Source of the DNA: a virus
Lineage: Duplodnaviria; Heunggongvirae; Uroviricota; Caudoviricetes
IMG/VR virus record: IMGVR_UViG_2740892423_000028
Location: 1 to 16,955 of that record
Reading direction: 5' to 3' (one strand)
Length of the DNA stretch: 16,955 bases
In this document: one piece after another, positions 1-16,610 of the stretch
Layout of the letters: each line of letters starts with the position of its first letter
Position numbering within the stretch: the stretch's first letter is position 1
The notes under the pieces: model-generated
Database searches by the model: none
What the model was told of the DNA's origin: nothing
What the model saw: only the letters and a program-made list of their open reading frames with translations
Program-made: the position numbers and the translations under genes

Positions 1-798
1 TTAATGAACATTCGTCGCCGAAAACGAGTCTGTATCATTAGCGTGATGCAGTCTCTGCAAAGGATCTTGTTGATAAAATTGACAGAAACGTTGCCACAAT
101 GAAGGGAAACGAGGAGCAAAAAGTTCTGGGGCGCTAAAGAAATATTCAGAAAGTACGGCAAAACATTCAGCAGGATCACTGGCAGCATAAGCATCAATGC
201 TCGCCGCATTCTCACCAACTAATTCGATTTCTTCCTGAATGTTGTTCATTGCAGCATGAAGATCGTGTTCCCAGCCAGCAACCTCACGCAACGAAATAAA
301 GGGAACTCCGCTGGCGCGATCGCCGTTACGGGTGTCCAGCTTATGAGCGACTTCATGAATAATCAGGTTAAAACCAGATGCATCAAAAGAATCTTGTATA
401 TCCAACCAGTTCAAAACGATAGGCCCTTGCTGCCAGCTCTGACCTGACTGAACAATACGTTGGTTATGCACCAGACCGATATCGTCTTCCCATTCATCAT
501 CGACCACAAATGGCGCAGGATAAATTAAGACTTCATGAAAACCATCCAGCCATTCCAGTCCTAACTCCAGAACGGGTAGGCAAAATAGAAGTGCTATCCG
601 GCAGCTTCTTAATGAATCCAGTTCAAAGCCCTGTAAAGGAACAAGCCGCTTTTGCTGTAAAAAACGTTCGGCAAGAGTGACTAATTTGCTTTGTTCCTGT
701 TCCGTCAGACCCGTTAAAAGGGGGATCGATAGTGCTTCCTGCCAGGGAAGGGCAGTTTGATGTGCTGATTCTTGTACTTTCCAGGGCCACTTAATCAT
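1..798 (-). CDS. mtfA: Mlc titration factor A (zinc-dependent peptidase MtfA), complete
   Basis: Translation from the internal Met reads [14 protein letters not shown]... with an HEVAH zinc-binding motif, 265 aa; the ATG was located as revcomp of cat at 796-798. The ORF-track entry 1..837 over-extends the N terminus by 13 codons. Stop TAA at 1-3 on the reverse strand. Confidence 0.9.
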
Positions 799-891
799 CG
801 TTTTGCTCGCAAACTCGTCACTTGAACAAAATTGCACGGACAGGGACTGTTAAAATGCCAAATTTCCTGACATCATGGCAACCATCTGAAC

Positions 892-981
892 GGAGAGATG
901 CCGGAGCGGCTGAACGGACCGGTCTCGAAAACCGGAGTGGGGGCAACTCCACCGGGGGTTCAAATCCCCCTCTCTCCGCCA
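892..981 (+). tRNA. serU: tRNA-Ser, anticodon CGA
   Basis: 90-nt sequence GGAGAGATGCCGGAGCGGCTGAACGG...CCGCCA with a long variable arm, anticodon loop CU-CGA-AA and 3' CCA; matches my recall of E. coli serU. The integrase lies immediately downstream. Confidence 0.9.
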
Positions 982-1026
982 AAATTCAATCACTTATACA
1001 TCATTAAGTCAGTGACAAAAATCACA

Positions 1027-1057
1027 CTTGGAATTACTTGGAATATTTTCTTGGAAT
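1027..1057 (+). repeat. Three direct repeats CTTGGAAT at 1027, 1037 and 1050; candidate arm-type integrase binding sites
   Basis: Seen directly; spacing 10 and 13 nt, between the tRNA 3' end and overlapping the integrase stop codon (the tandem copy also encodes the last residues of Int). Confidence 0.35.
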
Positions 1058-2059
1058 ATTTTCAGGTAACGGGACATCAAGTGTCGGTGAAACTTTAACC
1101 TTCCTGTCATAGATTAGCACTTGCCCCTCGGTTTTGTGACCAGAGAAAAGTTGCTTATCCCGACTGCTTCCTTCATAGTCTGAAATTCCTTTCGCCTTCA
1201 GATCATGAAAGGTGAAGTCGGTTAAAATACCTGAAATTTTGCCTGCGCGATTTCTTGCTTCTACCCACATTTCGTTAAAGCCTTTGTACATATATCGGTT
1301 GCCGTATTGATTGCTGATTACATAGGCGGATTTTGGTAACTGTTTTGCTTTTTCGATCGCCGCCTGTAATCGTGGACTCCATGCTTTTATCTGTTTTTTT
1401 CCTGTTTTCCCTTGCTGGATAAAGATCCCGTCGTTTCCAATCTGCTCCCATTTCAGCGATAACACATCGGAAACCCTCGCTGCACACAGATAGGCAATTT
1501 CCATTGCGATAAAAACAGGAAGAGGTGCAACGCTTAATACTGCCTGGTATTCTTTGTCGGTTACATATCGTTCGCGGTTTTTGGCCTTGAATTTACTTAC
1601 ACCTGCACATGGGTTAGCCTTCACGAACCCTCGCTCATACCCCCAACTGTAAACACGGGACATACTGCTTTTTTCATGGTTGGCTTGCGTTTTACTCTGT
1701 TCCCCTCTTTTGTCCATGTATCGACGGATGTGTTCTGGTTTTATGGAATCCGCTGGTACTTTACCGAATACGGCAAGCAACTTTTTTTGATGTTGCAGAT
1801 AATCTTTTTGTGTTCTTGGACTGAGGTCACTGTAATAGGCGCTGGCGAGGAATTTTTCCCACAAGCGACCGAATGTCATTGCACGATCGCGATTATTTAC
1901 AGTTTCCTCATACTTTTTCCATAAAGCAGCTAAACCATCCTTGATGGCGGTTAGTGTGACAGATTCTCTGGATGTTGGTTTCCATACATAACTATATTTA
2001 TTTGGGTATACATTTGGAGGTAATTTTTCGTGTTCAGGATTTTTCCTTCGTCTTCCCAT
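1034..2059 (-). CDS. Phage tyrosine integrase (site-specific recombinase)
   Basis: 341-aa ORF next to the tRNA, facing it; C-terminal H..R / H..Y-type catalytic region (FHDLKAKG ... SGHKTEGQVLIYDRK); start ATG overlaps the upstream gene stop by 1 nt. Confidence 0.9.
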   Translation of the reverse strand: MGRRRKNPEHEKLPPNVYPNKYSYVWKPTSRESVTLTAIKDGLAALWKKYEETVNNRDRAMTFGRLWEKFLASAYYSDLSPRTQKDYLQHQKKLLAVFGKVPADSIKPEHIRRYMDKRGEQSKTQANHEKSSMSRVYSWGYERGFVKANPCAGVSKFKAKNRERYVTDKEYQAVLSVAPLPVFIAMEIAYLCAARVSDVLSLKWEQIGNDGIFIQQGKTGKKQIKAWSPRLQAAIEKAKQLPKSAYVISNQYGNRYMYKGFNEMWVEARNRAGKISGILTDFTFHDLKAKGISDYEGSSRDKQLFSGHKTEGQVLIYDRKVKVSPTLDVPLPENIPRKYSK

Positions 2060-2262
2060 CAGATCGCACCAAAATTCGGCTCTACCTCGCGTGGTGGTAA
2101 AGTTTTATTGCAGGTAAATAGATCCCGGCTGACAATCGGTTTGCCACTACGATTGGTATAGAACGGAAGCCCGTTTTCCATTAACCATTTTCGCTGGTGG
2201 CTTGCATATTTGCAGCCCGTTAATATTAGCAATTCATCTTCGGTTAAAAATAAGCTGCTCAT
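2059..2262 (-). CDS. Excisionase-like small protein (possibly DUF4224-like)
   Basis: 67-aa ORF immediately upstream of and translationally coupled to int (TGATG overlap); the function is inferred from position only. Confidence 0.5.
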   Translation of the reverse strand: MSSLFLTEDELLILTGCKYASHQRKWLMENGLPFYTNRSGKPIVSRDLFTCNKTLPPREVEPNFGAI

Positions 2263-2320
2263 AGCTATATCTCATAACCGCCGCTAACTATATGCGGTTA
2301 GCGGCGATCAGGGTTGAACA

Positions 2321-4783
2321 TTAAAAATCAGCCTGATTCGGGATCAGTTTTTGCCAGATTGCTGAAACGTATTTTGCCTGGTGACGGGCGTCATCAAGTG
2401 CATTGTGGCGCACGCCTTCGAATGGAATAACGGTTCTGGCATCAAAGTCGATTGTTTTTCCCAGCTCAACGATTGTGCGTACATCGCGATCGTTGTGGTA
2501 GCGCCACGGGCAGGGGATGTCCAGACGTTCGTATGAGATGCGCAAAATTGCGTTATCGAAAGTTGCACCATTACCCCATACCTGAACGAATTTTTCATCT
2601 GAGTATTCGTTGATGAACTCCCGAAACTGCGAAAGGGCATCCTTCAGTTTTACCTGGTCTGTTAAAATGGCAGCTCTGGCTTCACTGGACTGCTTCAGCC
2701 ACCATTCGATGGTTCCACCGTCAGGAACAGCCCCTGTATTCATTGCGTCAGTCAGACTGATAACGATATAAAATACTGGCCCGATTTCCCCTGTTTGTGG
2801 GGCGAAGAAAACCGCACCAATAACCACGATGGGCGCATTGGTGTTGGTTCCCATTGTTTCAATGTCGATCATCAGGTGGTACCACACTCTGCTGGTGGAT
2901 GTGATAACGTGATGACCGTTCACCGCAATTAAGGGATCTGCCGTCCCGCCAGTTTCATTATCGCTGGCGTGGTCCTGAGCGCTGCCAGCATTCTCCTTGT
3001 GTGGATGTTCAGCGCCTTCCATTTCCTTCGGATCATTTTCCTGAACTTCAACCTGATTCTCTTCATCGAATGTTTCCTGGTATGTTGCGTCGCCCATCAC
3101 CGCGCCACAATCAGGGCAGTTGCCGCCACCGCTCTGACCGCAGGCGGTGCAGACTTTTTCCGCTTCCTGTTGCGCTACTGGCTCAGGTTGTTTCGTTTCT
3201 GGCTCGTTTTGTAACGCATTTTGGCTGTTTTGTTCCGCTTTCTGGTCGTTCTGTTCCGTTTCTTGCTGGTTCTGATTCACTGAATCGCGGGTTTCAATCC
3301 CCTTCACCCATTTCGGATCATTCGGGTCGCTAATCCCTGCAACAAATTCACCACGTGATACAGCAAGCAACTTATTGGCATCAGGCTGGTTGATATTGGC
3401 TGCCTGCATAATTTTGTTTACTTCGTCAGCGGTAACTTTTACCTGATTAACCGGATCTATCTGCGCCTGAGTATCCAGCGATTGCGTGTCCTGGCGATGT
3501 TCAGTTGTATCCGGCTCCATTGCTTCAGTCGTTGCCTGTTCATCTGCCATTGCGTCAGACGGTTGTGATTTTTCCTCATTATTTTTTTCTTCTTCTGTTT
3601 CGTGTTTAGCAGCAGCCAGTTCGCGGTTAACTTCTTCCAGGATATCTTTTTCCGGTGTATGTCGTGCAGCAGCGAGAGTTTCCTCGGTAGGATTCTCGTG
3701 ATCAGTCTCCGTTAAATTGGCGTTGATATACCCCTGAAGGCGTCCCGGGTAATGATAAAACTCAGGGTGTGCGCTCCGGATAAGTGCAAAAATAGCGGCA
3801 CGGGAATAATCCAGGATACCCGGGATTGCGCGAAGTGCTGCGGACCATTCTTTGAACGGACTTTCTTTCTTCCGGACGACTTCTTTTGCGCGACGATAAA
3901 CGCTGCCCGGAATTTCATAAATATTAAAATCCATCGGAAGTGTGGCTGCTGCAATCTCCACATCCAGCGTATCGAAGGTGTGTACTAAATTCGGATTGCG
4001 ATCGGTTTTGTTCCCGCCGCCAGCATTAGCACCGGAAGCCGTGCGGGTGATACGTGAAACACGATTTCCCTTCATCCACTCTTTTGTAAGCAGACCTCGA
4101 TCGGTGTAGTCAGCGCCCAGGTATGCTTCGAAAAAAGCGGTCATCAGTCCCAGGTCTGAATTACCAGGATTAGGGAAAACTTTGTCAGTGTCGCGTACCA
4201 GTTTGTGGAGATCGCGAATTTCCAGTGGTTCGAGTTGCGCTGCTTTATTTGAGATGGCCAGCGCGGTAACGGCGGGAAGTTTTTCATCCTGTGCGTTATG
4301 TAATGCGCGCAGTTCGTCCCGCGAAACGTGCGTGATCGGTTTTTCGCTGTTGTGTTGCGCCAGCCATCGAACAGGCAGAATCTGACCTGAAACTGGCAGG
4401 AGCATATTCTCCTCAATCTCAGTCATGTCTTCACCGTTGACGTTGGTATTGTCAGTGCTGGCTGGTTTGTCCTGAACAGAGGGCGCGATAAGTACCATTG
4501 TGATACCATCTTCCCCGCCTTTTTCGTATCGGTTGCAGAATTCGGTATCAAACACGCCTTCCGGAGGAAGGTCATTCACAACGGGTAAATGGACGCGAAC
4601 AGGTTTTTTAAAATCCTCTTCGTCAAATCCGGCATCGTCCATTGCGACAACACCGCGTGATATTGCAATCGATAATTTTTTTGCTGTGCGCCAGTAAAAA
4701 CCGCCTTTAATCCCAAGGCGTTTTCTGACTTTGTCATTTTTGGCTTCGTAATATAGTGCAATTTCTTCTTTATCAGCGCTCAT
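2321..4783 (-). CDS. Large phage exonuclease protein (YdfE / exodeoxyribonuclease VIII-like) with a C-terminal DEDDh 3'-5' exonuclease domain
   Basis: 820 aa; C terminus carries the Exo I-III motifs [20 protein letters not shown] and [13 protein letters not shown]; central CxxC...CxxC zinc ribbon ([16 protein letters not shown]); acidic/Gln-rich low-complexity middle; GAGG RBS 8 nt upstream of the ATG at 4783. Confidence 0.85.
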
Positions 4784-4860
4784 TGATAAACCTCGTAACT
4801 ATTTTTAGGGTGAACAAATCCCTGCCATTGCTGGCATATAAAAATGAAACCGGATATTAA

Positions 4861-5064
4861 TTACGGTGCTGTTTTAAGTCCTGCCGGGATTTCGTTATTG
4901 TCCATGCGAATAACTTTATCAACCGGATAACAGTTGCCGGGAATTTTCTGTTCCGCTGCGGCAGCCATGCATTCTTTCATTGAGTCATGTATACCAATAA
5001 CAAGATCGACTGGTTCGCCTGTATTAAGAAAAACTGTCAGAACGAGTGCAAATGCTGTATTCAT
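4861..5064 (-). CDS. YdfD-like small protein (position of the Qin lysis protein YdfD)
   Basis: 67 aa from the internal Met MNTAFALVLTVFL... with a hydrophobic N terminus; AAGGA RBS; start lies 2 nt after the dicB stop (TGAcaATG). The ORF-track entry 4861..5118 over-extends it. Confidence 0.55.
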   Translation of the reverse strand: MNTAFALVLTVFLNTGEPVDLVIGIHDSMKECMAAAAEQKIPGNCYPVDKVIRMDNNEIPAGLKTAP

Positions 5065-5066
5065 TG

Positions 5067-5249
5067 TCAGCGTCCTTTTTGCATCAGGCGTAAACGGGCC
5101 AGCATTGAAACAATGCATATTTGATTTAATAGCTCCCGTTCGTGTTTTCTCTTATTAATGGCATCTTCAGTAAATACAGGGTTACTGATTCTGACACCAA
5201 TTTCAAAACAACCTTCAGACGTATTAACGTTTGGTAATAACGTTTCCAT
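5067..5249 (-). CDS. dicB: Cell-division inhibitor DicB
   Basis: 60-aa product METLLPNVNTSEGCFEIGVRISNPVFTEDAINKRKHERELLNQICIVSMLARLRLMQKGR closely matches my recall of E. coli DicB; GAGGA RBS 7 nt upstream of the ATG at 5249. The ORF-track entry 5067..5345 is over-extended. Confidence 0.8.
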   Translation of the reverse strand: METLLPNVNTSEGCFEIGVRISNPVFTEDAINKRKHERELLNQICIVSMLARLRLMQKGR

Positions 5250-5266
5250 TATCGCGTCCTCAACAA

Positions 5267-5428
5267 TGAATTTTGTGATGCGGTGCCTGGTGCCTCCAGG
5301 TGACGTTAACCAGTTAACAATTAACGCCGGATACAGAGAACCCACCCATAAGAACCAATACGGAAGTCAACTGGCCTTTTTAACTGTTCCGCGTGCGCTG
5401 AGCCGCATTCACCGCATCACAAAATTCA
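5267..5428. repeat. Perfect 19-bp inverted repeat, arms 5267-5285 and 5410-5428, 124 bp apart
   Basis: Seen directly: TGAATTTTGTGATGCGGTG at 5267-5285 and its exact reverse complement CACCGCATCACAAAATTCA at 5410-5428; it lies between the DicF-like terminator and the dicB RBS. Confidence 0.7.
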
Positions 5429-5432
5429 CTTT

Positions 5433-5488
5433 AAAAAGGGCGGACATCAGCCAGCAATGAAACTGATGCCGCCAAAAGGTAATCAACA
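5433..5488 (-). ncRNA. dicF: DicF-like small RNA with intrinsic terminator
   Basis: Minus-strand sequence ...UUGAUUACCUUUUGGCGGCAUCAGUUUCAUUGCUGGCUGAUGUCCGCCCUUUUU: GC-rich hairpin (stem 5438-5473) followed by a U5 tract (5433-5437), just upstream of dicB as in Qin; it resembles my recalled DicF sequence (UUUGGCGG-AUCAGUUU...CCGCCCUUUUU). The 5' end is approximate. Confidence 0.5.
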
Positions 5489-5812
5489 TGGGTTGTTGCA
5501 GCGGGGTTGTCACTCAGGCGTATGGCCAACCTGACAACCCGGTGTTATCTCGAGGAAAGGATAGCCTCGCCATACTTACCGCCGCGCCATTTCGCGGATT
5601 GCCACAACCGGAAGCGCACGGTCGAAGATGCCGGTGGCACGCAACAGAGGGAGAAATAACTTCGCCGTGCGCTTTCGCGTTATGCCCTGATTTTTCAGGG
5701 ATATATCCTTTCAGTAAACTGTCAGTGCCGAATTCTTATCCGTGTCCGGCGCACGACCACACGTGACAGCGTGTTGGTCTCCATTTTTAACCGCATCTCA
5801 ATGGAGGATAAA

Positions 5813-6055
5813 ATGCCAACAAAACTATGCCCAGCCTGTAATTCTTCGTCTGATTTTTCAGAGAAGAATGGTTATTATATTTTTGATTGCCCGAAACACG
5901 GTGTATTCCATATATCAAAACTTGATGGGATATTTGTGAAACCAAGTCAGTATCAGGCTGACAAGTTAAATAAAATTCTCAATGCCAAAAGAGCGTCAGG
6001 CTATACGGGACCTATAGAGGTTTTACCGCGTCCTCGTCTTGTGGAACTGGATTAA
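5813..6055 (+). CDS. Hypothetical small zinc-ribbon protein (CPAC...CPKH), AT-rich, antisense to the dicB operon
   Basis: 81 aa from the ATG at 5813 with a GGAGG RBS 5 nt upstream; the ORF-track entry starts earlier at GTG 5771. Its 3' end overlaps the convergent gene 6012..6572 by 44 nt. Coding status unverified. Confidence 0.45.
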   Translation: MPTKLCPACNSSSDFSEKNGYYIFDCPKHGVFHISKLDGIFVKPSQYQADKLNKILNAKRASGYTGPIEVLPRPRLVELD

Positions 6056-6572
6056 ACCAGTGCTCCTGAATCGCTCGTATTTTTACCCTCGGATGATTGC
6101 CGGGGGTGATTATTAATTCTGGCGGACATGGTTCTCCATTATGACAAATTGCGCTATAAGTGAAATCAGCCAGAGCAGTGCCGGTCATTATTATTCCGAA
6201 CTTATCAAGCAGCGAGAGCAAATCACGCAAACAGGAGTTATCAGTTTTTTCGTTATAAAATGAATCCCCTGATGCAGAGAGCATTTCACCTCGCTCTGCG
6301 ATGCGTTTGGCCATTTTCCAGAATTCTTTTTTTGAATACTTTTCCTCGACATAAAAACCCATCGCCGAGGCAATCCGCTTTGCAGCTTCTTCAGTATCCT
6401 GGTTGTTTGTTACCGAAACAGAGTACAATCCGATAAACGCATCGCGCACATTACGAGCCATATTATCAGTGTCTTTTTTCGTTACCGATTCCAATGCAAG
6501 TTCGTTCAGGTGTTGACGGAGTGTCTGTGCTGCAATCTCCTGGATTGATAGTGGTAAATCTTTAAATTCCAT
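6012..6572 (-). CDS. Hypothetical 186-aa soluble protein, uncharacterised cargo in the YdfC position of the dicB operon
   Basis: Full-length ORF with a G-rich RBS; no recognisable catalytic motif and no transmembrane segment by eye; appears AT-rich relative to its flanks. Confidence 0.6.
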   Translation of the reverse strand: MEFKDLPLSIQEIAAQTLRQHLNELALESVTKKDTDNMARNVRDAFIGLYSVSVTNNQDTEEAAKRIASAMGFYVEEKYSKKEFWKMAKRIAERGEMLSASGDSFYNEKTDNSCLRDLLSLLDKFGIIMTGTALADFTYSAICHNGEPCPPELIITPGNHPRVKIRAIQEHWFNPVPQDEDAVKPL

Positions 6573-6583
6573 CTTTAACCCCG

Positions 6584-6712
6584 TTAGCCGTTAGATTTTG
6601 CCGAACTGGAAAGCGCCTGTTTAAACTCACTGAAGCTGAGAGCTTCTTCGCCTTCGGCAAGGCCTTCGAAGTATTCTTCGTAAGCCTTTTCCATGATTGC
6701 GTCGAAATCCAT
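6584..6712 (-). CDS. YdfB/YdaG-like 42-aa protein
   Basis: 42-codon ORF MDFDAIMEKAYEEYFEGLAEGEEALSFSEFKQALSSSAKSNG, not in the ORF track (below the size cut-off); its ATG lies 1 nt after the upstream stop (TGAtATG). Size and position match ydfB of Qin. Confidence 0.45.
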   Translation of the reverse strand: MDFDAIMEKAYEEYFEGLAEGEEALSFSEFKQALSSSAKSNG

Positions 6713-6713
6713 A

Positions 6714-6869
6714 TCACTCACCTGAATTTCTTTCCAGCCAGCGACGCGCGCCAGATTCGGTTTTAAACGTTTTGCTTTTGGTATATGTCATCGCGGTGAA
6801 CGTACCGTCCTGGTTGGGGAACACGCCACATACCAGAGATTCGCTGTTGCCAAGATCGATAGTATCCAT
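6714..6869 (-). CDS. YdfA/YdaF-like (DUF1391-like) 51-aa protein
   Basis: Internal Met MDTIDLGNSESLVCGVFPNQDGTFTAMTYTKSKTFKTESGARRWLERNSGE with a GAGG RBS 5 nt upstream; the ORF-track entry 6714..6950 (78 aa) is an alternative longer start. Confidence 0.55.
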   Translation of the reverse strand: MDTIDLGNSESLVCGVFPNQDGTFTAMTYTKSKTFKTESGARRWLERNSGE

Positions 6870-7046
6870 GCTGACCTCATTTCCCCTTAACGCCGGGGTA
6901 GCGGAACAAAAACCTGCTGCATAGTTATTAAAGTTGAACCCTGCCGTCATGTTCTTACGCCTCGGGCTGGCTACTTAACCCCTGACCACTGCCTGGTAAC
7001 TCGAAGTATTGCCCTGCGTTCTGTGGGACGGGGTGGGTTGGTTGAT

Positions 7047-7110
7047 ATGATGTACTTTTTGTTCACTAATGTAAAGTACTTTTAGTACATTTTATGAGAA
7101 ATAAAGTACC
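7047..7110. promoter_or_regulatory. Cluster of four GTAC-centred operator-like motifs with a candidate leftward promoter (pL / dicB-promoter analogue)
   Basis: GTAC cores at 7052, 7076, 7085 and 7106, including the perfect palindrome AAAGTACTTT at 7073-7082; on the minus strand a -35 TTTACA (7070-7075), 17-nt spacer and a weak -10 CATCAT (7047-7052). Confidence 0.4.
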
Positions 7111-7163
7111 AGGAGGGGGGGAGGAGCATAAACCCGGAGGGAAGTTACCGGATTTATGCAGAT

Positions 7164-7583
7164 TCAGGAGGCTTTTTGTTTTTTCTTTCGCGCTAATTCT
7201 TCATAAATTGCGTTGTACTTCTGTTTTTTCTCCTCAAGAGTTTTTAAAAGTTCATCAGTTTCACTGTCAGGGAGTTCATCAAGAAGTTCAATGATGATTT
7301 TTTGCCTCGGACTTAACTCCTGATAGAAACGCAGGCTTCCGCTTTCTTCAGTGTCCTCCCCCAGAAGGTAAGTTGGTGTTGTTCCGATAAGTGCTGCCAA
7401 TTCTTTCAGTTTCTCTCGACGGGGAATTGTCTCTCCATTAAACCATTTACTAACCGCTTTGGGTGTTAGCTTCATTCGACGGGCAATTTCTGCCTGCCTT
7501 CCGTGTTGTTCAAAACCAGCATTATCACAGGCTAGCGCAAGCCTGCTGGCGAACTCTTTACGCGCTTCATCTTCATGAACCAT
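7164..7583 (-). CDS. DicA/RacR-like HTH (XRE family) prophage repressor
   Basis: 139 aa; N-terminal HTH (QAEIARRMKLTPKAVSKWFNG); the C-terminal part (LSPRQKIIIELLDELPDSETDELL...) resembles my recall of DicA; divergent from the cro-like gene; no S24 peptidase domain. Confidence 0.85.
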   Translation of the reverse strand: MVHEDEARKEFASRLALACDNAGFEQHGRQAEIARRMKLTPKAVSKWFNGETIPRREKLKELAALIGTTPTYLLGEDTEESGSLRFYQELSPRQKIIIELLDELPDSETDELLKTLEEKKQKYNAIYEELARKKKQKAS

Positions 7584-7662
7584 AAGTTCAATGATATTTA
7601 CTATTGAATGTACTGTCAGTTCTGTTATATTGTGTACTCAAGGTTCACATTGTGAGGGTGAT
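7584..7662. promoter_or_regulatory. Divergent immunity promoters and operators between the repressor and cro-like genes
   Basis: Rightward -35 TTGAAT (7604-7609), 16-nt spacer, -10 TATATT (7626-7631). Leftward -35 CTGACA (revcomp of 7614-7619), 17-nt spacer, -10 TATCAT (revcomp of 7591-7596) ending 7 nt before the repressor ATG with no Shine-Dalgarno. Palindromes TTGTGTACTCAA (7630-7641) and TCACA-T-TGTGA (7645-7655); GTAC core at 7610. Confidence 0.5.
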
Positions 7663-7929
7663 ATGAGCCATACAACACTTGCAGATGTAATCAAAGCAGT
7701 TCGCGTTTCTGTTGTAGCCGATGTTTGCGGTGTCAGCCAAAGAGCAATCTACAAATGGATGAATAATGGAAAATTACCGCGCACAGAATATACAGGCGAA
7801 ACAAATTACGCTGAAAAAATTGCTCTGGCATCAAACGGATTATTTTCTGCTGATGCGGTTTTGACTATTGGCAGGATTAAGCCTACAGCGAATGAATCAC
7901 TGGCGGTGAACAATGATATTCACTCCTGA
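7663..7929 (+). CDS. Cro-like / YdaS-like HTH protein
   Basis: 88 aa from the ATG at 7663 with a GAGGG RBS; HTH segment VCGVSQRAIYKWMNNGKLP; divergent from the repressor. Confidence 0.75.
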   Translation: MSHTTLADVIKAVRVSVVADVCGVSQRAIYKWMNNGKLPRTEYTGETNYAEKIALASNGLFSADAVLTIGRIKPTANESLAVNNDIHS

Positions 7930-8464
7930 GCAGGCTCGCGAGGCTCTGGATGCCTGGGTATGCCGACCAGGAATGACGCAGGAGCAGGCGACGATATTAA
8001 TCACGGAAGCATTCTGGGCTCTGAAAGAACGCCCGAACATCGATGTTCATCGCGTCACGTTTGATGATGGCGCGGTTGATCAACGGGCGCTGGGCGTTAA
8101 CAGGGTGAAGATATTCGAACGCTGGAAAGCTATCGACACCAGGGATAAGCGTGAAAAATTCACGGCGCTGATTCCGGCAATTATGGAGGCTATCCGGATC
8201 AGCGATTTCAGGTTGTATTGTGAAATTACTGACGGAAAAAGCATTACGTACATGATCGCCGGGTTAAACAAAGAATATGGCGATGTGGTGGAGTCCGGGC
8301 TGCTTTTTGCGGATCCAGCTGTTGTGGAACGTGAGACTGACGAGCTTATAGAAAAAGCCATTGCTTTCAAGCGTGCGTATCGTCAGCAATACCAATATTA
8401 CTTTGCAGATAAACAAATGTCTGCCAGGGGTTCGTATGAGTATCGATGCACTACGATGGGCTAA
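7913..8464 (+). CDS. CII-like / YdaT-like protein
   Basis: 183-aa ORF overlapping the cro-like gene end; positional analogue of Rac ydaT and lambda cII. Confidence 0.6.
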   Translation: MIFTPEQAREALDAWVCRPGMTQEQATILITEAFWALKERPNIDVHRVTFDDGAVDQRALGVNRVKIFERWKAIDTRDKREKFTALIPAIMEAIRISDFRLYCEITDGKSITYMIAGLNKEYGDVVESGLLFADPAVVERETDELIEKAIAFKRAYRQQYQYYFADKQMSARGSYEYRCTTMG

Positions 8465-9890
8465 AAAGGTGAAAACCGGCAGTTCATCCAGTAAGTCAGT
8501 ATTGACCTGGCTTGCTGATATGTGCGGTGCCGATTTGTGTGCATACCCGTCTGTATCTGCACTGGCAGAAGTAACGGAGCTGAACAAAAAGACTGTGCAG
8601 GACAGCTTACGACACCTGATGGAGATTGGGTTAATTGTTGATACCGGTGAGAGAAAAGGCCGAACAAAGCAAATCGTAGTGTACCGACTTATCGGTGTAG
8701 AAGAAAGCGTTGCCGAGCCTGAATACACCCAAAAACGGGAGTCTTTAAAGGTGGGTAAAATTGGTACTGTTAATAAAAACAGTACCGAAAATGGTTATGT
8801 TTCAGCACAAAACAGCCCCAAAAACGGAACTCTTAGCTGCATGGAAAATAACCAAAGACACCCAAATTTTCCATCAAAGACACCCAAAAACGGATCACGG
8901 AACCCAAAGGAACCCAAAGATCTAAACCCCACACATAATGCACGCGAGAGTGCTCCGACCAGTGAGCAGGAAGTTTTGTCGTTACAGGCAGTGCCACCCG
9001 TATTCCTGGATGGCCTGAGCGAACCCATCGGAAAATTTCCGATGACCGATAGCTGGCATCCGTCACGGGATTTTCGACGACGGGCTGCGGTGTGGGGGAT
9101 GGCTTTGCCGGAGCCGGAATTTACACCTGCTGAACTTGCCGCCTTCCGGGACTACTGGGCAGCGGAGGGGAAAGTATTTACGCAGGTTCAGTGGGAGCAG
9201 AAATTCGCCCGTCACGTAAATCACGTCAGGGCGCAGGTTAAACCAGTCAGCAAGGGGGTGAGCCATGCAGCCGCACCAGGTGGCACCGCATCACGGGCAG
9301 TTCAGGAAATTCGGGCAGCACGTGAGCAGTGGGAACGTGAAAATGGATTTATCAGCGACGGAAACGGCGTGGAAGCTGTGGGAACTCATGGGGGAGGTTT
9401 ATTCGAACCGCTGGACCCAGAAGAACGGGGCCGCACCTNNNNNNNNNNGCTGGTCTGCCGCCAGTGCATGGACCGTTGCAGGGCAGGTGAAACATGGCCT
9501 CCGGACTTGGCTGAGTTTGTGGCGCTGATTTCGGAGAGCGGGGCAAATCCATTTGGTCTGACGGTGGATAACGTGATGGAGGAGTACCGACGCTGGCGCA
9601 ACGAGTCCTGGCGATACGACGGAAGCGATAAATACCCGTGGTCTCAGCCTGTGCTGTATCACATTTGTCTCGAGATGCGTTCAAAGGGGATTGAGCGCCA
9701 GATGACCGAAGGGGAGTTAAAACGGCTTGCAGAACGGCAACTGGCGAAATGGGCAAAGCATGTTGGTAACGGACTGAGTGTTCCACCCGTCCGTAGGCAA
9801 CTGGCAGCACCCATACGTCCTGCGGGACCAACGCCAATTGAGTTGCTGAAACAGGAATATGAACGCAGGAAAGCGGCAGGTTTTGTTTGA
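8436..9890 (+). CDS. Replication initiation / replisome organizer protein (N-terminal HTH, DnaT-like C-terminal region); interrupted by an assembly gap
   Basis: Starts at the ATG at 8436 overlapping the upstream stop (MSIDALRWAKKVKTG...); contains the N run 9439-9448, so the true length and frame continuity are unknown. Confidence 0.75.
   Translation: MSIDALRWAKKVKTGSSSSKSVLTWLADMCGADLCAYPSVSALAEVTELNKKTVQDSLRHLMEIGLIVDTGERKGRTKQIVVYRLIGVEESVAEPEYTQKRESLKVGKIGTVNKNSTENGYVSAQNSPKNGTLSCMENNQRHPNFPSKTPKNGSRNPKEPKDLNPTHNARESAPTSEQEVLSLQAVPPVFLDGLSEPIGKFPMTDSWHPSRDFRRRAAVWGMALPEPEFTPAELAAFRDYWAAEGKVFTQVQWEQKFARHVNHVRAQVKPVSKGVSHAAAPGGTASRAVQEIRAAREQWERENGFISDGNGVEAVGTHGGGLFEPLDPEERGRTXXXXLVCRQCMDRCRAGETWPPDLAEFVALISESGANPFGLTVDNVMEEYRRWRNESWRYDGSDKYPWSQPVLYHICLEMRSKGIERQMTEGELKRLAERQLAKWAKHVGNGLSVPPVRRQLAAPIRPAGPTPIELLKQEYERRKAAGFV
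9439..9448. other. Assembly gap (10 N)
   Basis: Run of exactly 10 n inside the replication gene. Confidence 0.95.
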
Positions 9891-9919
9891 GTTGATAAGT
9901 AATTTTACCGGGAGGGTTT

Positions 9920-10315
9920 ATGGCGAAACCTTTTACACCCGAACAGCGGGAAGAGCTGAAGGCACGAATTATCGGATTGGTACGCAAAAATGGACGCATG
10001 ACGATGTCGCAACTGGAGAGAGCGACGGGAGCAGGCTGGCATTCGGTCCGACGCTGCCTTGTGGATGTACTGGCTTGTGGTGATTTATACATGTCCGGGG
10101 AATACGGTGTTTTTGCATCAGAGCAGGCGTATCGTGAATGGCGTAAGACACCGGAGAAAACAACTGACCAGACGCTGATTCGGAAGTTACCAGACGGAGA
10201 GATACGCCGCTACGACAGGAGCCAGAACATAATCTGTCGCGAGTGCCGGAAGAGTGAGGTTATGCAGCGAGTGCTGGCGTTTTATCGGGGAAACTTTCAG
10301 GAGGTGATGGGGTGA
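9920..10315 (+). CDS. Hypothetical protein, possible winged-helix N-terminal domain
   Basis: 131-aa ORF with a GGGAGGG RBS; first gene of a translationally coupled block. Confidence 0.55.
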   Translation: MAKPFTPEQREELKARIIGLVRKNGRMTMSQLERATGAGWHSVRRCLVDVLACGDLYMSGEYGVFASEQAYREWRKTPEKTTDQTLIRKLPDGEIRRYDRSQNIICRECRKSEVMQRVLAFYRGNFQEVMG

Positions 10316-10611
10316 GGGTGAGAGTCTATATCGCCGGTCCAATGACCGGGTATAAAAATTTCAACCGTGAGGCGTTCCACAATGCGGAAGAGGAACTGAA
10401 ACGGGAAGGGCATACAGTCTTAAGCCCGGCAGTACTTCCGGACGGGCTGACACAGCCACACTACATGGATATTTGCATGGCAATGATTCGTTGTGTGGAT
10501 GCGATTTACATGCTGAAAGGCTGGCAGCGGTCAGCAGGTGCTAAGGCAGAACTGGCACTGGCGGAGAAACTGGGGCATGCAGTTATTTTCCAGGAGGCAA
10601 ACAGTGAGTAA
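10312..10611 (+). CDS. DUF4406-like / nucleoside 2-deoxyribosyltransferase-like small protein
   Basis: 99 aa starting MRVRVYIAGPMTGY...; GTG start overlapping the upstream stop (GTGA), CAGGAGG RBS; the YIAGPM-type N terminus is typical of the deoxyribosyltransferase-like fold. Confidence 0.6.
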   Translation: MRVRVYIAGPMTGYKNFNREAFHNAEEELKREGHTVLSPAVLPDGLTQPHYMDICMAMIRCVDAIYMLKGWQRSAGAKAELALAEKLGHAVIFQEANSE

Positions 10612-11068
10612 CCAATGGCGACCAGATATTTGTCCTATAACCGGACGTGCATTTTTCATGTGGATTGAGCATCCGAAATTGGGCAATGTGCCGACGTATG
10701 GCGGCCCATTAGACAGTTACACCATTCCAACAAAGGACAGCGATGGTGAGTTTTCGTGTGAGCGTTACGATCATGATTTCGGTGGCTGGGTAGAAAGCGA
10801 ATGTCTTGGGTTATATCTGATTGATGATAAAGAACAATGCAGAGTCTACGAACTCGAGGAACGCATTAAAGAGCTGGAAGCGCGGGAAGTTCATTTGCCG
10901 ACTCGCTACGGCCTTCGATATGGACATCCGATAAATGATGATGAGCGCCACGTCATGATACCTAAAGAAAATGGCTGCTGGCTTTATCTGGCTGACTTAG
11001 AACATGAACTACGTGTTGCTGGCATTCATATCAAAGGAGAGGAGTATGGAAATAAAACCAGAAGATGA
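10604..11068 (+). CDS. Hypothetical phage protein
   Basis: GTG at 10604 with an AGGAGG RBS 6 nt upstream; overlaps the previous gene by 8 nt; the ORF-track start at 10538 is probably too far upstream. Confidence 0.5.
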   Translation: MSNQWRPDICPITGRAFFMWIEHPKLGNVPTYGGPLDSYTIPTKDSDGEFSCERYDHDFGGWVESECLGLYLIDDKEQCRVYELEERIKELEAREVHLPTRYGLRYGHPINDDERHVMIPKENGCWLYLADLEHELRVAGIHIKGEEYGNKTRR

Positions 11069-11402
11069 GTTAAGTAATATTGTTTTATTTCCGGCAAAAG
11101 AGGATGACCCACGTAATCAGGTTAATTTTCTTTATGAGCCATCGGAAAGACCATATTGCCATCACGCCTCTGTCCGGGTTGACGAAAAAGAGCGTCAGGT
11201 CCGCTGTAAAATCTGCGGTGCAGTTGTGGAGCCGTTTGACTGGATGCTCTCAGTGGCGAAAAGAGAAACCAGACTGGCAGATGATGTAAGGCTATTGCGC
11301 CAGGAGGAACAGGAAAGACGGAAAAATATAGAAAAGTTAATTCAGATTGAGCGTAACGCGAAAGCGCGGATACGCAGGGCGACAAAATCCAGAACTGAAT
11401 AA
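11046..11402 (+). CDS. Hypothetical zinc-ribbon protein with a basic coiled-coil tail
   Basis: ATG at 11046 with a GGAG RBS; CHH...CKIC motif; the ORF-track entry starts at 11004. Confidence 0.55.
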   Translation: MEIKPEDELSNIVLFPAKEDDPRNQVNFLYEPSERPYCHHASVRVDEKERQVRCKICGAVVEPFDWMLSVAKRETRLADDVRLLRQEEQERRKNIEKLIQIERNAKARIRRATKSRTE

Positions 11403-11452
11403 ATAAATTTAGCACTGTAAATAAAATCAAATCCTTAACTGGAGGTATATCT

Positions 11453-11665
11453 ATGTTAAATACACAGAAAACCATTAATGCGGAAAAATATAACGAGTGG
11501 GTGAGGAAATTTTCTGAGCAGATTTTTAAAATTACTGGCGACGAGAATGCGGCAAAAAATGAATTAGAGCCGTGGACACCTGAAGGAGCCGACCCAAATT
11601 ATTGCTGGTGGGATGTTGATCCAGTTGATGCTGCAAATGAAGCTATGAGTTATCACAACGATTAA
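11453..11665 (+). CDS. Hypothetical small protein
   Basis: 70-aa ORF with a GGAGG RBS. Confidence 0.5.
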   Translation: MLNTQKTINAEKYNEWVRKFSEQIFKITGDENAAKNELEPWTPEGADPNYCWWDVDPVDAANEAMSYHND

Positions 11666-11697
11666 TGTCAGGGGGCCGCCCGAAAGGGCGGTAAGAA

Positions 11698-11916
11698 ATG
11701 ACTACATTATTCAGAAAAAAATATCCGCGAAAAAGTAGAGCGACAGAATTTCTGTTTCTCATTCTGTTTATCGTATTGATGATACCGATATCCCCTTTAA
11801 TTCTGGTATGGGGAATCGGAAAAGTAATTGAGCCCGTTATTGAATTGTATAACGACGTTGTATGGGCCCCGTTCAACGCACTGCACAATAAAATTAATCC
11901 ATATAAGGAAAACTGA
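11698..11916 (+). CDS. Hypothetical small membrane protein
   Basis: 72 aa with one strongly hydrophobic segment (FLFLILFIVLMIPISPLILVWGIG). Confidence 0.5.
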   Translation: MTTLFRKKYPRKSRATEFLFLILFIVLMIPISPLILVWGIGKVIEPVIELYNDVVWAPFNALHNKINPYKEN

Positions 11917-11917
11917 A

Positions 11918-12295
11918 ATGACCATTACCACAAAAGAGCAGCAGAGATACAGTAAACAAGATTTAGGAGACGCTCTGGATTTTTATCTTTTTGAAGGTGA
12001 TTTTGGTGCGCCATTCGATATTGAGTTATCGAATAAAATCGTTACCTCTCGCGGTGAATATACATGCCACATATGCGCCGGAAAAATCTCAAAGGGTGAA
12101 ATACACCGCAGCACAACATGGAAATTTGATGGCGAGCTTATGTCCTATAGATGCTGCAATGAGTGCTGTGTAGCGATGGTTAAAAGCGTCAATTATGAAT
12201 ATGAAGACAAAGACCCGGTAGAAGCACGTTATGCGCTTGGGGGAGAGCGCAGGAGAGCAAAACCGCTGGAAAAATCACTGTTATATGCGCACTAA
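11918..12295 (+). CDS. Hypothetical Cys-rich (zinc-finger-like) protein
   Basis: ATG at 11918 directly after the upstream stop; CHIC...CCNECC motifs; the ORF-track entry starts at 11828. Confidence 0.55.
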   Translation: MTITTKEQQRYSKQDLGDALDFYLFEGDFGAPFDIELSNKIVTSRGEYTCHICAGKISKGEIHRSTTWKFDGELMSYRCCNECCVAMVKSVNYEYEDKDPVEARYALGGERRRAKPLEKSLLYAH

Positions 12296-12306
12296 AGGAG
12301 ACTGAT

Positions 12307-12516
12307 ATGGCTATTGCCGCAAGTTACACCATGCATCTCTATTGTGACTGCCGCCAGTGTACGGAAGGTGTATATCCAGTGCCAGACTTCGGTGAGTATA
12401 TCGGTACGTCATGGTCTGGTTGTGCAAAAGAAGCCCGTAAAGACGGGTGGCGAATAAGTAAAGACAAAACACGTGCTTTTGCGCCCGGGCATAAAGTTTT
12501 GAGGATTAACAAATGA
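12307..12516 (+). CDS. Hypothetical small Cys-containing protein
   Basis: 69-aa ORF with an AAGGAG RBS. Confidence 0.5.
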   Translation: MAIAASYTMHLYCDCRQCTEGVYPVPDFGEYIGTSWSGCAKEARKDGWRISKDKTRAFAPGHKVLRINK

Positions 12517-12935
12517 CCACTACTACCAGAGAAAACGCGGAAATTAAATCATTCATCACTGGTTTCCTGAGCGACCCGGCGCACGATAACCAATCTTCAA
12601 GCAGCCTGCTTGCCAATGTGTTTCGTATCGCGCTGGCATCGCTGGAAGCAGAACCAGTTGCATGGACTGATGACGAGGAACTGCGAGATGTTGAGCAAAT
12701 TGGTTTAGGTTATTTATTACCTTGTCCTCCAGATAAATACGCAGACCCGCGTCGTGTAATTCCGCTGTATCGTGTGCCGCCAGCTCCCACAGTGCAGGCA
12801 CAGGGAATTGAGATCGCAATAAACGAACTGGTGTCTCTGTCCCCACAGCTGGATAAACGAGCGGTGGAAACTCTTTCTATGGCTGTGGCACATCTACGTA
12901 AACTGGTTAAGAAGCAGTTGCAGGTTAAGGAATGA
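12513..12935 (+). CDS. Hypothetical protein sharing an N-terminal module with the next gene
   Basis: 140 aa; contains RIALASLEAEPVAW ... PLYxxPPA; start overlaps the upstream stop (ATGA). Confidence 0.55.
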   Translation: MTTTTRENAEIKSFITGFLSDPAHDNQSSSSLLANVFRIALASLEAEPVAWTDDEELRDVEQIGLGYLLPCPPDKYADPRRVIPLYRVPPAPTVQAQGIEIAINELVSLSPQLDKRAVETLSMAVAHLRKLVKKQLQVKE

Positions 12936-12938
12936 CAC

Positions 12939-13682
12939 ATGAACGCTATCACCAAAGAACGTATTGAATTGTTCATTAAAAATCCGCTTGAAAACGGGCT
13001 TACTCGTAGCGAACAAATGGAAGTGGCACGGATTGCTCTGGCATCACTGGAAGCAGAGCCAGTGGCGTGGAAGGCAACCTTCACGCAAATTGACAATGAA
13101 TATAATACGTTCACTGCTCTGTATTCTGACAAAGTAGAAGCCGAACGGTGGGTGCGACTGCATGAAATAGGTGACTTTCGGGCAGAAATAACACCACTTT
13201 ACGCAGCGCCGCCAGCACAAGTGTTACCGAACGATGGGGTTGAGCTACTGGAAGAATTCGTCTGGACTGGTGAGGAATGGAGCGTGCCATTAACTGGCTC
13301 TGAACCAGAGGATGATGTCCCTGAATCGTTCTCTGCGAGTATCAGTGTTAGTTGTGCTGATGATGTTGAGGTGTGGGTATCAGTGCCGCCGTATATGATA
13401 ATTCCCTACATTGAAGGTGATCAGGATGAGGATTTATTTGATACGTGTGCTGGAGCATTACGTATATCGTTTCTGGATTTGCTAAAGGCGTATACAAGTT
13501 CGTGCATCAGAGAGGATGCGGGGGATGGTGTTTTATACATGGCTAATTTTTTCGAGAGAATGTCGAAAAGTCTTCGTAAATTTTATGGCACCCTTCCACA
13601 GGAGGAAATAGCTGCTGCGAAGGTGGATGTTGATCTGGTCATCCCGTGGGAGCGGGGAGGTCATGAGGAGGGGGATAAGTGA
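12939..13682 (+). CDS. Hypothetical protein with the same N-terminal module and an acidic C-terminal extension
   Basis: 247 aa; contains RIALASLEAEPVAW ... PLYAAPPA; AAGGAA RBS. Confidence 0.6.
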   Translation: MNAITKERIELFIKNPLENGLTRSEQMEVARIALASLEAEPVAWKATFTQIDNEYNTFTALYSDKVEAERWVRLHEIGDFRAEITPLYAAPPAQVLPNDGVELLEEFVWTGEEWSVPLTGSEPEDDVPESFSASISVSCADDVEVWVSVPPYMIIPYIEGDQDEDLFDTCAGALRISFLDLLKAYTSSCIREDAGDGVLYMANFFERMSKSLRKFYGTLPQEEIAAAKVDVDLVIPWERGGHEEGDK

Positions 13683-13972
13683 GCTGGCCTGAAGCATTCA
13701 CAACGGTAGGAATTGCGATGGCGGTGGCGCTGGTGGTGTATTCGATTTGCCGATGGGGATAAAAACGGTTTGCGGGAAAAGGAGAGTTAAGTAGAATTGC
13801 TGCGGGTGCTTGAGGCTATCTGCCTCAGGCATGAACACCAAAAGGCAGATAGAGAAAAGCCCCAGTTAACATTACGCGTCCTGCAAGACGCTTAACATTA
13901 ATCTGAGGCCAATCCATGCTGAACACATGTAGGTTAGCCTCTTACGTGCCGAAAGGCAAGGAGAAGCAGGCT

Positions 13973-14102
13973 ATGAAGCAGCAAAAGGCGATGTTAATCG
14001 CCCTGATTGTCATCTGTTTAACCGTCATAGTGACGGCACTGGTAACGAGGAAAGACCTCTGTGAGGTACGAATCCGAACCGGCCAGACGGAGGTCGCTGT
14101 CT
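13973..14102 (+). CDS. hok: Hok/Gef-family type I toxin (HokD-like), 3' end lost in an assembly gap
   Basis: MKQQKAMLIALIVICLTVIVTALVTRKDLCEVRIRTGQTEVAV... matches my recall of HokD/RelF; AAGGAG RBS; the last ~9 codons fall in the N run 14103-14112. The ORF-track read-through to 14143 is an artefact. Confidence 0.8.
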
Positions 14103-14112
14103 NNNNNNNNNN
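14103..14112. other. Assembly gap (10 N)
   Basis: Run of exactly 10 n inside the hok gene. Confidence 0.95.
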
Positions 14113-14174
14113 AGGCGAGGGAGAAATCCCTCGCCACCTCTGATGAGTCAGGCATCCTCAACGCACCCGCACTT

Positions 14175-14201
14175 AACCCGCTTCGGCGGGTTTTGTTTTT
14201 T
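14175..14201 (+). terminator. Intrinsic terminator at the 3' end of the hok transcript
   Basis: AACCCGC-TTCG-GCGGGTT hairpin followed by TTTGTTTTTT; preceded by a perfect 9-bp GAAA-loop hairpin at 14114-14135. Confidence 0.6.
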
Positions 14202-14273
14202 CCTGGCATTCTGGTTTACAATTCGCACGTCAGCCTGAACACCTGACACCTGCTGCGCCAGCAGAGAAAACAG

Positions 14274-14546
14274 ATGGCGCACAAAACCAAATTTCACAAT
14301 TCTGATACCGACCTTGCCATCCGGCATGGGCGGCGTTCACACGCATTCAAATATGACTGGTATCAGCACGATCCCTGCACTGAAGAACAGGCCGAATGGC
14401 TGATTCAGAACTACCGCAGACGTGGGTATGAGTTTAGGAAAGCCCTCAGCCTCGATTATCGTCACTGGATAATCTACGTCAGACTCCCTTATTCCGAACG
14501 CCCACCGCGTCCGTCCCGCACATTCCAGCAACGCATCTGGAGGTAA
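14274..14546 (+). CDS. Hypothetical protein in the position of Qin rem
   Basis: 90-aa ORF whose stop lies immediately before the DUF968 gene start; weak RBS. Confidence 0.45.
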   Translation: MAHKTKFHNSDTDLAIRHGRRSHAFKYDWYQHDPCTEEQAEWLIQNYRRRGYEFRKALSLDYRHWIIYVRLPYSERPPRPSRTFQQRIWR

Positions 14547-14547
14547 C

Positions 14548-15597: not shown

Positions 15598-15609
15598 AAG
15601 AGGTTACTG

Positions 15610-15969: not shown

Positions 15970-15977
15970 GCGTAAAT

Positions 15978-16532: not shown

Positions 16533-16610
16533 CGTAAAAACTGCTTCAATGCCGGTACGCTTCGCAAAGCTGTACCGCGAGGCGAATAGCAGACATGGAC
16601 ATTTGAAAGA

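Follow-up and report, generated by a model that had tools for sequence, protein, structure and literature searches.

The virus record IMGVR_UViG_2740892423_000028 (positions 1 to 16,955; hereafter the window, 16,955 nucleotides (nt) in all) contains, between positions 5756 and 6585, two convergent genes whose 3' ends overlap: a plus-strand gene (5813-6055) coding for an 80-amino-acid (aa) putative zinc-ribbon protein and a minus-strand gene (6012-6572) coding for a 186-aa soluble protein. This segment is read here as a two-gene accessory cassette located in the sieB slot of a Qin/Rac-type prophage and, with somewhat less than even confidence, as a prophage-state-dependent exclusion/self-immunity pair resembling the SieB/Esc-sas system. 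The arrangement noticed in a preliminary description of this DNA has been confirmed and its interpretation is partly supported, namely as acquired cargo at a site typical of exclusion genes with a hypothetical function, making this pair a well defined and testable candidate rather than a surprising one. Both proteins already have database entries, where they are called hypothetical, and both fall into PHROGs without an assigned function.

A two-gene cassette in the ydfC slot

Alignment of the window with the Qin prophage of Escherichia coli K-12 is near-perfect through ydfB, is lost just past the ydfB stop codon and is regained at about position 5755, upstream of dicF. The pair had been proposed to occupy the ydfC slot of the dicB operon, and this alignment bears it out: an 830-base-pair (bp) segment (5756-6585), which holds both genes, replaces the ydfC segment. 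The 72-aa YdfC of K-12 shares the slot between ydfB and dicF; in contrast, it is unrelated in sequence to the 186-aa protein, with no alignment by BLASTP, and the K-12 cassette has no opposite-strand gene. The guanine-plus-cytosine (GC) content of the segment is 42.3% (39.1% for the small open reading frame (ORF) and 43.5% for the large one), as compared with 52.4% in the left flank (5346-5755), 49.6% in the right flank (6586-7000) and 47.7% over the whole window, an AT bias which is real but modest. Among 5426 complete E. coli genomes, the K-12-type ydfC segment is present in 3065 (56%), another cassette (type B, described below) in 594 and the variable core of the present cassette (5830-6400) in 24-25, mostly from porcine enterotoxigenic E. 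coli (ETEC) and edema-disease strains. About 385 further genomes have a sister allele that has diverged to 73% DNA identity and is found in the O157:H7 prophage Sp4 and its relatives. The slot is thus variable among Qin-like prophages, and the pair corresponds to a lower-GC, swapped-in cassette, consistent with the acquired cargo initially suspected.

Both ORFs are genuine genes, as judged from the ratio of non-synonymous to synonymous substitution rates (dN/dS). For the large gene, dN/dS is 0.17-0.26 in its own frame and 1.1-1.6 in the off-frames. Codons 1-66 of the small ORF lie outside the large gene and therefore offer a clean substitution test: dN/dS is 0.08, 0.10 and 0.15 against homologues that are 97%, 89% and 67% identical, versus 0.5-2.9 in the two other frames. 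The 44-nt overlap of the 3' ends (6012-6055), correctly described at the outset, provides a second view of these constraints. Substitutions within it, which fall in codons 172-186 of the large gene, were non-synonymous for this gene in 5/5 and 2/2 cases in two comparisons and silent for the small gene, whose C-terminal tail, RPRLVELD, was unchanged. Since all the overlap changes affect the large protein and none the small one, the small-gene frame is the constrained one, leaving the last ~15 residues of the large protein free to vary.

A spurious plus-strand ORF, not corresponding to a gene, might have been suspected, as the Prokaryotic Genome Annotation Pipeline (PGAP) leaves it unannotated in several genomes, its starts are inconsistent elsewhere (135, 189 and 199 aa) and a protein search gave only 2-4 clusters at 90% identity. 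This explanation is effectively refuted by the substitution pattern, dN/dS being 0.08-0.15 in the correct frame only and this frame being conserved within the overlap. In addition, the ORF remains intact at 44-99% identity, with invariant Cys/His ligands and a conserved Shine-Dalgarno sequence and ATG; it is intact in all the loci examined (E. coli, Salmonella, IMG/VR and metagenomes) that carry the window's own allele of the cassette, designated A1; and its product matches phrog_10133 (1.1e-27), a family annotated as of unknown function.

The Shine-Dalgarno sequence GGAGG (5803-5807, plus strand), read from the sequence 5 nt 5' of the small-gene ATG, is conserved across all E. coli cassette types. 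The coordinates and the GGAGG ribosome-binding site given in the preliminary description stand, but not the length of 81 aa: the protein has 80 residues, encoded by 81 codons when the stop is counted. Annotation of this gene varies among genomes, with starts giving 80, 135, 189 or 199 aa, or is omitted (e.g., L003 3251-3658); the conserved Shine-Dalgarno sequence and ATG, as read from the sequence, support the 80-aa form. As regards the zinc-ribbon label, the signature CPxC...CPxH (CPAC at residues 6-9, CPKH at 26-29), with C6, C9, C26 and H29 as putative ligands, is invariant over homologues sharing 44-99% identity. The match to PF13453 (Zn_ribbon_TFIIB) is sub-threshold (E = 0.02, 14.7 bits for a cut-off of 22). 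An AlphaFold2 model, with a predicted local distance difference test score (pLDDT) of 73.7, places strands over residues 3-35 and a helix over residues 46-61, and the protein is accordingly modelled as a beta zinc ribbon followed by a helix, with predicted metal binding. It has no hydrophobic segment (top Kyte-Doolittle 19-residue average of 0.42). Searching deposited phage genomes with tblastn gave no match for this protein, and scans of metagenomes and viral contigs recovered close relatives only.

The 186-aa gene, whose coordinates and length were likewise correct, comes third in the repressor-controlled early-left (dicB-type) operon. As it starts 11 nt past the ydfB stop codon and no terminator lies behind it, this gene should be transcribed along with its neighbors from the repressor-controlled promoter. 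Its product has no predicted transmembrane segment (top Kyte-Doolittle 19-residue average of 1.27). In agreement with the earlier statement that the 186-aa protein lacks any recognizable motif, profile scans against Pfam, NCBIfam and PADLOC gave no significant match for either protein. Profile searches against PDB sequences with the large protein, its N-terminal domain family and the small protein yielded only noise, and fold-based searches, none of which was run on the large protein, gave no match from which a function could be assigned.

The 186-aa protein comprises two parts with distinct histories. Its N-terminal domain (N-domain; 6408-6572, minus strand) is a predicted helical hairpin of ~55 residues with the pattern MEFKDLP..Q.IAA..L...AR.V..AF..LY. 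PHROG families 1363, 2151, 9419, 6937 and 33007 match only residues 1 to ~60-100, with E-values of 5.8e-33 for phrog_1363 and 1.7e-32 for phrog_2151, both annotated as of unknown function. Similarly, a HMMER search of 1.84 billion representative sequences returned 89 proteins at E<=0.001, nearly all of which match residues 1 to ~60 only. The N-domain, which is matched by no Pfam family, occurs in ~85 clusters at 50% identity; it is found in many stand-alone proteins of 50-70 aa and in others with unrelated C-termini. The C-terminal domain (C-domain; residues ~78-178, 6039-6341, minus strand) is nearly an orphan: in the same search, its only matches beyond close relatives were one fragment and P0113, a stand-alone protein of 119 aa to which it is 36% identical. 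It is also the most constrained part of the large protein, with a non-synonymous rate (dN) of 0.035-0.077, versus 0.18-0.24 in the N-domain.

A variant of the large protein differing only by G48R (WP_432757426.1; L002 3615-4175 and L117 1683-2243) has been named "RNA-binding protein" by PGAP, the otherwise identical protein being labelled "hypothetical". No hidden Markov model or paper could be traced behind this name, which was taken as uninformative.

Pairing of the C-domain with the small gene

All the loci recovered with the zinc-ribbon protein carry a convergent C-domain. This holds for A1 and for A2, a sister allele ~67% identical to A1, in E. coli, Salmonella and metagenomes. A more distant example is provided by locus L093, where P0113, a C-domain devoid of N-domain, faces a zinc-ribbon homologue of 91 aa (44% identical to the small protein of the window), the two convergent genes overlapping by 71 nt. 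There, the pair lies directly after the repressor gene, the flanking genes differ and KilR is found instead of DicB. Further evidence comes from the Salmonella locus L008, whose N-domain is A2-like while its C-domain and small gene are both of the A1 form; in the comparison with the window, dN amounts to 0.24 for the N-domain and to 0.035 for the C-domain. This mosaic indicates that recombination reshuffles the N-domain without separating the C-domain from the zinc-ribbon gene. The O157 Sakai prophage Sp4 has damaged copies of the two genes: the large one (ECs_1063) is frameshifted to 129 aa, and the small one (ECs_1061) is interrupted by a stop at codon 62. Collectively, the C-domain and the zinc-ribbon gene stay paired, convergent and overlapping across large divergence and N-domain reshuffling. 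In one human E. coli isolate (L117 846-1358), an extra insertion of ~600 bp, with an annotated 170-aa hypothetical gene, lies between dicB and the small gene.

The pair belongs to a wider group of cassettes. From 80 IMG/VR loci found through the N-domain, three types were defined. In type A, the large protein has 186 or 179 aa and its partner is the 80-aa zinc ribbon (overlap of 44 or 20 nt); in type B, a protein of 212 aa (Ybl81 in one source) is found with an unrelated, abutting ORF of 69 aa, and in type C, one of 112 aa with an ORF of 64 aa, again unrelated (overlap of 12 nt). The small ORF of type B has a dN/dS of 0.23. Distant N-domain proteins led to four additional arrangements: in L115, 125 aa with an ORF of 66-95 aa (overlap of 32 nt); in L114, 65 aa with a 58-aa ORF (65 nt), preceded by the same leader as in the window; in Xenorhabdus L012, 50 aa with a 60-aa ORF (4 nt), the small protein being homologous to that of L114 (E = 5e-10); and in L112, 198 aa with an uncalled 76-aa ORF (125 nt). 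There are thus at least seven cassette types in which an N-domain gene faces a convergent small ORF that abuts or overlaps it.

The leader of the plus-strand gene (5756-5812), which is absent from K-12 Qin, is conserved and contains, in its predicted fold, a hairpin, CCACACG-loop-CGTGTTGG. Alignments showed that the leader is common to cassette types with unrelated small ORFs: its first 60-70 nt from position 5756 are 85-93% identical in hundreds of genomes carrying other cassette types, and the sequence ...CTCAATGGAGGATAAAATG is shared by types A, B and C. In the type C locus L080, 8 nt of the leader hairpin, TGACAGCG, are present as their reverse complement, CGCTGTCA, a small inversion in an otherwise conserved leader. 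The same leader precedes gene L09 in the Shiga toxin 2e (Stx2e) phage phiP27 (L116, NC_003356, 5106-5285), where only a ~35-aa ORF follows the conserved ATG and the N-domain gene is missing; leader and short ORF may represent a module remnant in a functional phage. A candidate anti-Shine-Dalgarno hairpin, CTCCATT...AATGGAG, was found neither in the minimum-energy nor in the centroid fold and was dropped.

At the other end of the small gene, a pattern scan detected a terminator-like hairpin (6083-6109, plus strand; fold z = -2.4) with a 10-bp stem and a moderately T-rich tail. Located within the large gene, 28 nt past the stop codon of the small one, it may form the 3' end of the small mRNA. 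This hairpin has no covariation support, because the region also encodes the ITPGNHPRV motif of the large protein.

The sieB position and the function of the pair

The immunity-proximal position, noted initially as one where exclusion genes usually sit, proved to be a stronger argument than first presented, as the plus-strand gene stands exactly where Rac and lambda carry a convergent, opposite-strand sieB. In Rac, the order is recE-racC-ydaE-kilR-kilS (a small RNA, sRNA)-[sieB, opposite strand]-ydaF (DUF1391)-ydaG-racR, with an overlap of 4 nt between sieB and ydaF. In the window, it is exonuclease-DUF1482-dicB-DicF-like sRNA-[zinc-ribbon gene, opposite strand]-186-aa gene-ydfB-DUF1391-repressor. 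The two orders match, with the small gene in the place of sieB, which makes it the positional equivalent of this gene. Lambda also shows this convergence, its leftward N gene (35037-35438) abutting the rightward sieB (34482-35036) with a gap of 0. The likeness to the SieB/Esc/sas system resides in the layout: within the early-left operon, one gene runs on the opposite strand and converges on the early gene before it, which it abuts or overlaps; in Rac, this gene moreover has the DUF1391 gene block on one side and the genes for the sRNA and the division inhibitor on the other. There is in contrast no sequence similarity. The Rac and lambda SieB proteins score 109 and 104 bits against PF14163 (1e-30), and the small protein neither matches PF14163 at E<=0.1 nor aligns with Rac SieB by BLASTP. 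As judged from sequence, the small gene is not a SieB homologue; SieB is 162-184 aa long, and the protein encoded here is an 80-aa, soluble, putative zinc ribbon.

SieB is produced by the prophage and aborts the lytic cycle of superinfecting phages. In P22, the SieB/Esc system requires the antisense RNA sas, by which translation within sieB is switched, and Esc, the cognate product, makes the phage immune to the exclusion that it encodes itself (PMC12197685, PMC7067206). The following mechanism can be proposed by analogy. The 186-aa gene would be read with the early-left operon (repressor | DUF1391-ydfB-186aa-DicF-DicB-DUF1482-exonuclease), and its product would be made only upon prophage derepression or infection by such a phage. 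The zinc-ribbon gene stands apart on the other strand, where it has a ribosome-binding site and a conserved leader to itself; its mRNA would be wholly antisense to the operon transcript, and its product would be of the moron type, expressed in the lysogen. The cognate C-domain of the 186-aa protein would then be the phage-cycle partner of the zinc-ribbon protein. Once the operon fires, the small gene would be shut down by convergent transcription and antisense pairing, and the zinc-ribbon protein would perhaps be neutralized through binding by the C-domain. The outcome would be an exclusion or interference function that acts in the lysogen and is lifted when the phage itself enters lytic growth. 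One difference is that Esc is an in-frame product of sieB, while the putative partner here is a separate convergent gene. Lysogen expression and shut-off of the zinc-ribbon gene are proposed because of the SieB/Esc/sas analogy and of the conserved pairing; we infer expression timing, antisense effect, physical interaction and exclusion phenotype alike.

Several points weigh against this proposal. SieB is membrane-associated, while both proteins here are small and soluble. Neither protein resembles a known defense, exclusion, toxin or antitoxin family in the Pfam, NCBIfam and PADLOC scans, and the AlphaFold2 model of the large protein, built from 11 homologues, is too poor for a fold search (pLDDT of 45.8). 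A pattern scan of the window for a sigma-70 promoter of the small gene gave only a site overlapping the ribosome-binding site; the best candidate found by eye, TTTTCA-N17-TAAACT (5692-5720), agrees at 8/12 positions and is weak. By comparison, the zinc-ribbon homologue of L093 has a good extended -10 promoter, TTGCCA-N15-TGATATACT, ~45 nt upstream of its ATG. The pair is carried by only three independent lineages (A1, A2 and L093), and in a mosaic phage region linkage alone can account for the co-inheritance of adjacent genes. In four type B loci, the small ORF is truncated and the large gene intact, which indicates that, at least in type B, the small protein is dispensable to a silent prophage. 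Finally, the K-12-type ydfC cassettes, present in 56% of genomes, have no opposite-strand gene at all.

These last points are also those expected if the two genes are functionally unrelated neighbors, an alternative which we consider possible but doubtful. The 186-aa protein would be an ordinary early-left accessory, the zinc-ribbon gene an independent moron, and their co-variation would arise from two shared recombination anchors, the N-domain coding sequence and the leader. The variable part of each cassette is indeed one contiguous block between conserved flanks, so that linkage alone predicts one-to-one pairing, and phage gene order is generally conserved; the existence of cassettes without the small gene and the loss of the small ORF, but not of the large gene, at some type B loci fit as well. 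This explanation has more difficulty with L093, where the pair persists with both anchors absent and different flanking genes. The two genes have moreover diverged in parallel (67%/67% between A1 and A2, 44%/36% between the window and L093, for the small and large proteins, respectively), and the convergent overlap has been kept despite its change in length (20, 44 and 71 nt). An unlikely variant of the partnership is that of a guard, similar to a toxin and its antidote, in which the 186-aa protein would be a host-damaging effector of the lytic phase and the zinc-ribbon protein, made in the lysogen, would neutralize its leaky expression. The setting is suggestive, with DicB, DicF and the DUF1482/YdfD lysis protein as neighbors in a toxic operon which is under layered control and is spontaneously switched on in a subpopulation (PMC10448788); the co-variation and co-occurrence of the C-domain and the small protein and the joint damage to both genes in Sakai Sp4 would also be explained. 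No similarity to any toxin or antitoxin family was found, though, the convergent order is unlike that of type II toxin-antitoxin operons, and the type B loci with a truncated small ORF keep their large gene intact. Still less probable is a role as transcriptional insulator, whereby convergent plus-strand transcription, through RNA polymerase collision and RNase III cleavage of duplexes, would damp leaky transcription that starts at the early-left promoter and reads through into the toxic dicF-dicB genes, the small proteins being secondary. Conservation of a 60-nt leader across cassette types with unrelated ORFs, the location of an opposite-strand gene immediately upstream of sRNA and division-inhibitor genes both here and in Rac, and the involvement of RNase III in DicF maturation (PMC10448788) are in line with it. 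The proteins nonetheless matter, since the small ORFs are under clear protein-level purifying selection (dN/dS of 0.08-0.23); in addition, the pattern scan revealed no good plus-strand promoter in the window, and most E. coli dicB operons, being of the ydfC type, have no opposite-strand gene.

Other known systems offer partial parallels to an exclusion/self-immunity pair. P2-like phages and P4-like satellites have hotspots that serve as reservoirs of anti-phage systems (PMC9122126). As in these moron hotspots, a fixed slot with conserved flanks receives alternative, lower-GC cassettes depending on the strain; the phage type and the slot differ, and here the flanks reach into the N-domain coding sequence and the leader, giving a chimeric protein. 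Proteins from types A, B and C and from L093 had no significant match in PADLOC-DB v2. Polymorphic effector/immunity pairs similarly have a conserved N-terminus followed by exchangeable C-termini, the small gene next to them varying along with the C-terminus. In contrast to them, the partner is convergent here, the proteins are small and cytoplasmic, and there is neither a secretion or delivery domain nor a recognizable toxin domain; the resemblance is architectural only. Type II toxin-antitoxin systems are co-directional, autoregulated bicistrons, unlike the present genes, which converge with overlapping 3' ends, the large one within a longer operon, and neither protein matched a toxin or antitoxin family in the profile scans. 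Type I systems, in which a hydrophobic toxin peptide of small size is paired with a non-coding antisense RNA, often through a 3' overlap, differ too, as both partners here are protein-coding, under purifying selection and without hydrophobic segment.

At a broader and more speculative level, which we rate as rather unlikely in its full extent, the MEFKDLP-type N-domain genes and their convergent partners could form an undescribed family of hypervariable two-component prophage modules in the sieB slot of Enterobacterales. Each C-domain would recognize its own small protein, and the layout would be wired to the lysogeny/lysis switch, in a polymorphic exclusion/self-immunity or effector/antidote system of numerous specificities. 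Our literature searches found no description of the convergent architecture of N-domain gene and small partner, nor of its equivalence to the sieB slot, and those on the locus tags, ybl81 and DUF1391 returned nothing on these genes. Should the exclusion/self-immunity mechanism proposed for the pair be correct, the few known prophage systems that spare the resident phage (SieB/Esc and similar) would be joined by a compact and soluble module of two proteins, and the sieB position of Rac, Qin and lambda-type prophages would be a diversity hotspot with at least seven interchangeable specificities. Being directly upstream of dicF-dicB, the pair may affect the leakiness of these division inhibitors in pathogenic E. 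coli; the allele is carried by porcine ETEC and edema-disease strains, and O157 has a decayed allele. Whatever its function, the family provides a clean natural system for convergent, 3'-overlapping protein-coding genes, and the N-domain defines an uncurated phage protein family, absent from Pfam, that is worth describing.

Prophage setting of the window

The window corresponds to the left arm of a Qin/Rac-type prophage integrated beside tRNA-Ser(CGA) (892-981, plus strand). This tRNA gene adjoins an integrase-size ORF (1034-2059, minus strand), which makes this the probable prophage attachment site, and the genes listed here from this ORF through the helix-turn-helix (HTH) repressor are leftward. 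The minus strand carries successively an 820-aa exonuclease gene (2321-4783), a DUF1482 gene (4861-5118), dicB (PF05358; 5067-5345) and, beyond the cassette, ydfB (6584-6721), the DUF1391/ydfA gene (6714-6950) and the repressor gene (7164-7583), after which rightward cro-like and YdaT genes are found. Between the repressor and DUF1391 genes, a pattern scan revealed a promoter-like site, TTTACA-17-CATCAT (7047-7075, minus strand), which is likely the equivalent of dicBp and would drive the operon containing the 186-aa gene. In K-12, dicBp is repressed by DicA, and the dicB operon, which is toxic and spontaneously switched on in a subpopulation of cells, produces a polycistronic RNA cut by RNase III and RNase E (PMC10448788).

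Downstream of the cassette and in the same operon lies a DicF-like RNA (5438-5488, minus strand), which matches Rfam RF00039 with E = 3.7e-5 and 34.1 bits, short of the gathering score of 48. Its targeting region, at the 5' end, is unlike that of K-12 DicF and its terminator stem is closer to Rac KilS than to K-12 DicF; its targets may be different from those of DicF. The only other match in an Rfam scan of positions 5200-7200 was to STnc100 (5217-5440, minus strand), also sub-threshold (34 bits for a gathering score of 47, E = 3.5e-5), which spans the dicB leader and the 5' part of the gene.

In the closest relatives (L001, L002 and L005, from E. coli O141:H4, PEC422 and Sakai Sp4), a relBE toxin-antitoxin pair is located between the DUF1391 gene and the repressor gene. 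The window has no such pair, and its repressor allele differs from those of these relatives. Farther to the right, a run of 20 N (9439-9458), an assembly gap, breaks a 509-aa ORF (8361-9890), and a strong sok antisense RNA match (RF01794, 118.6 bits; 13804-13978, plus strand) points to a hok/sok-type module in the right arm of the prophage.

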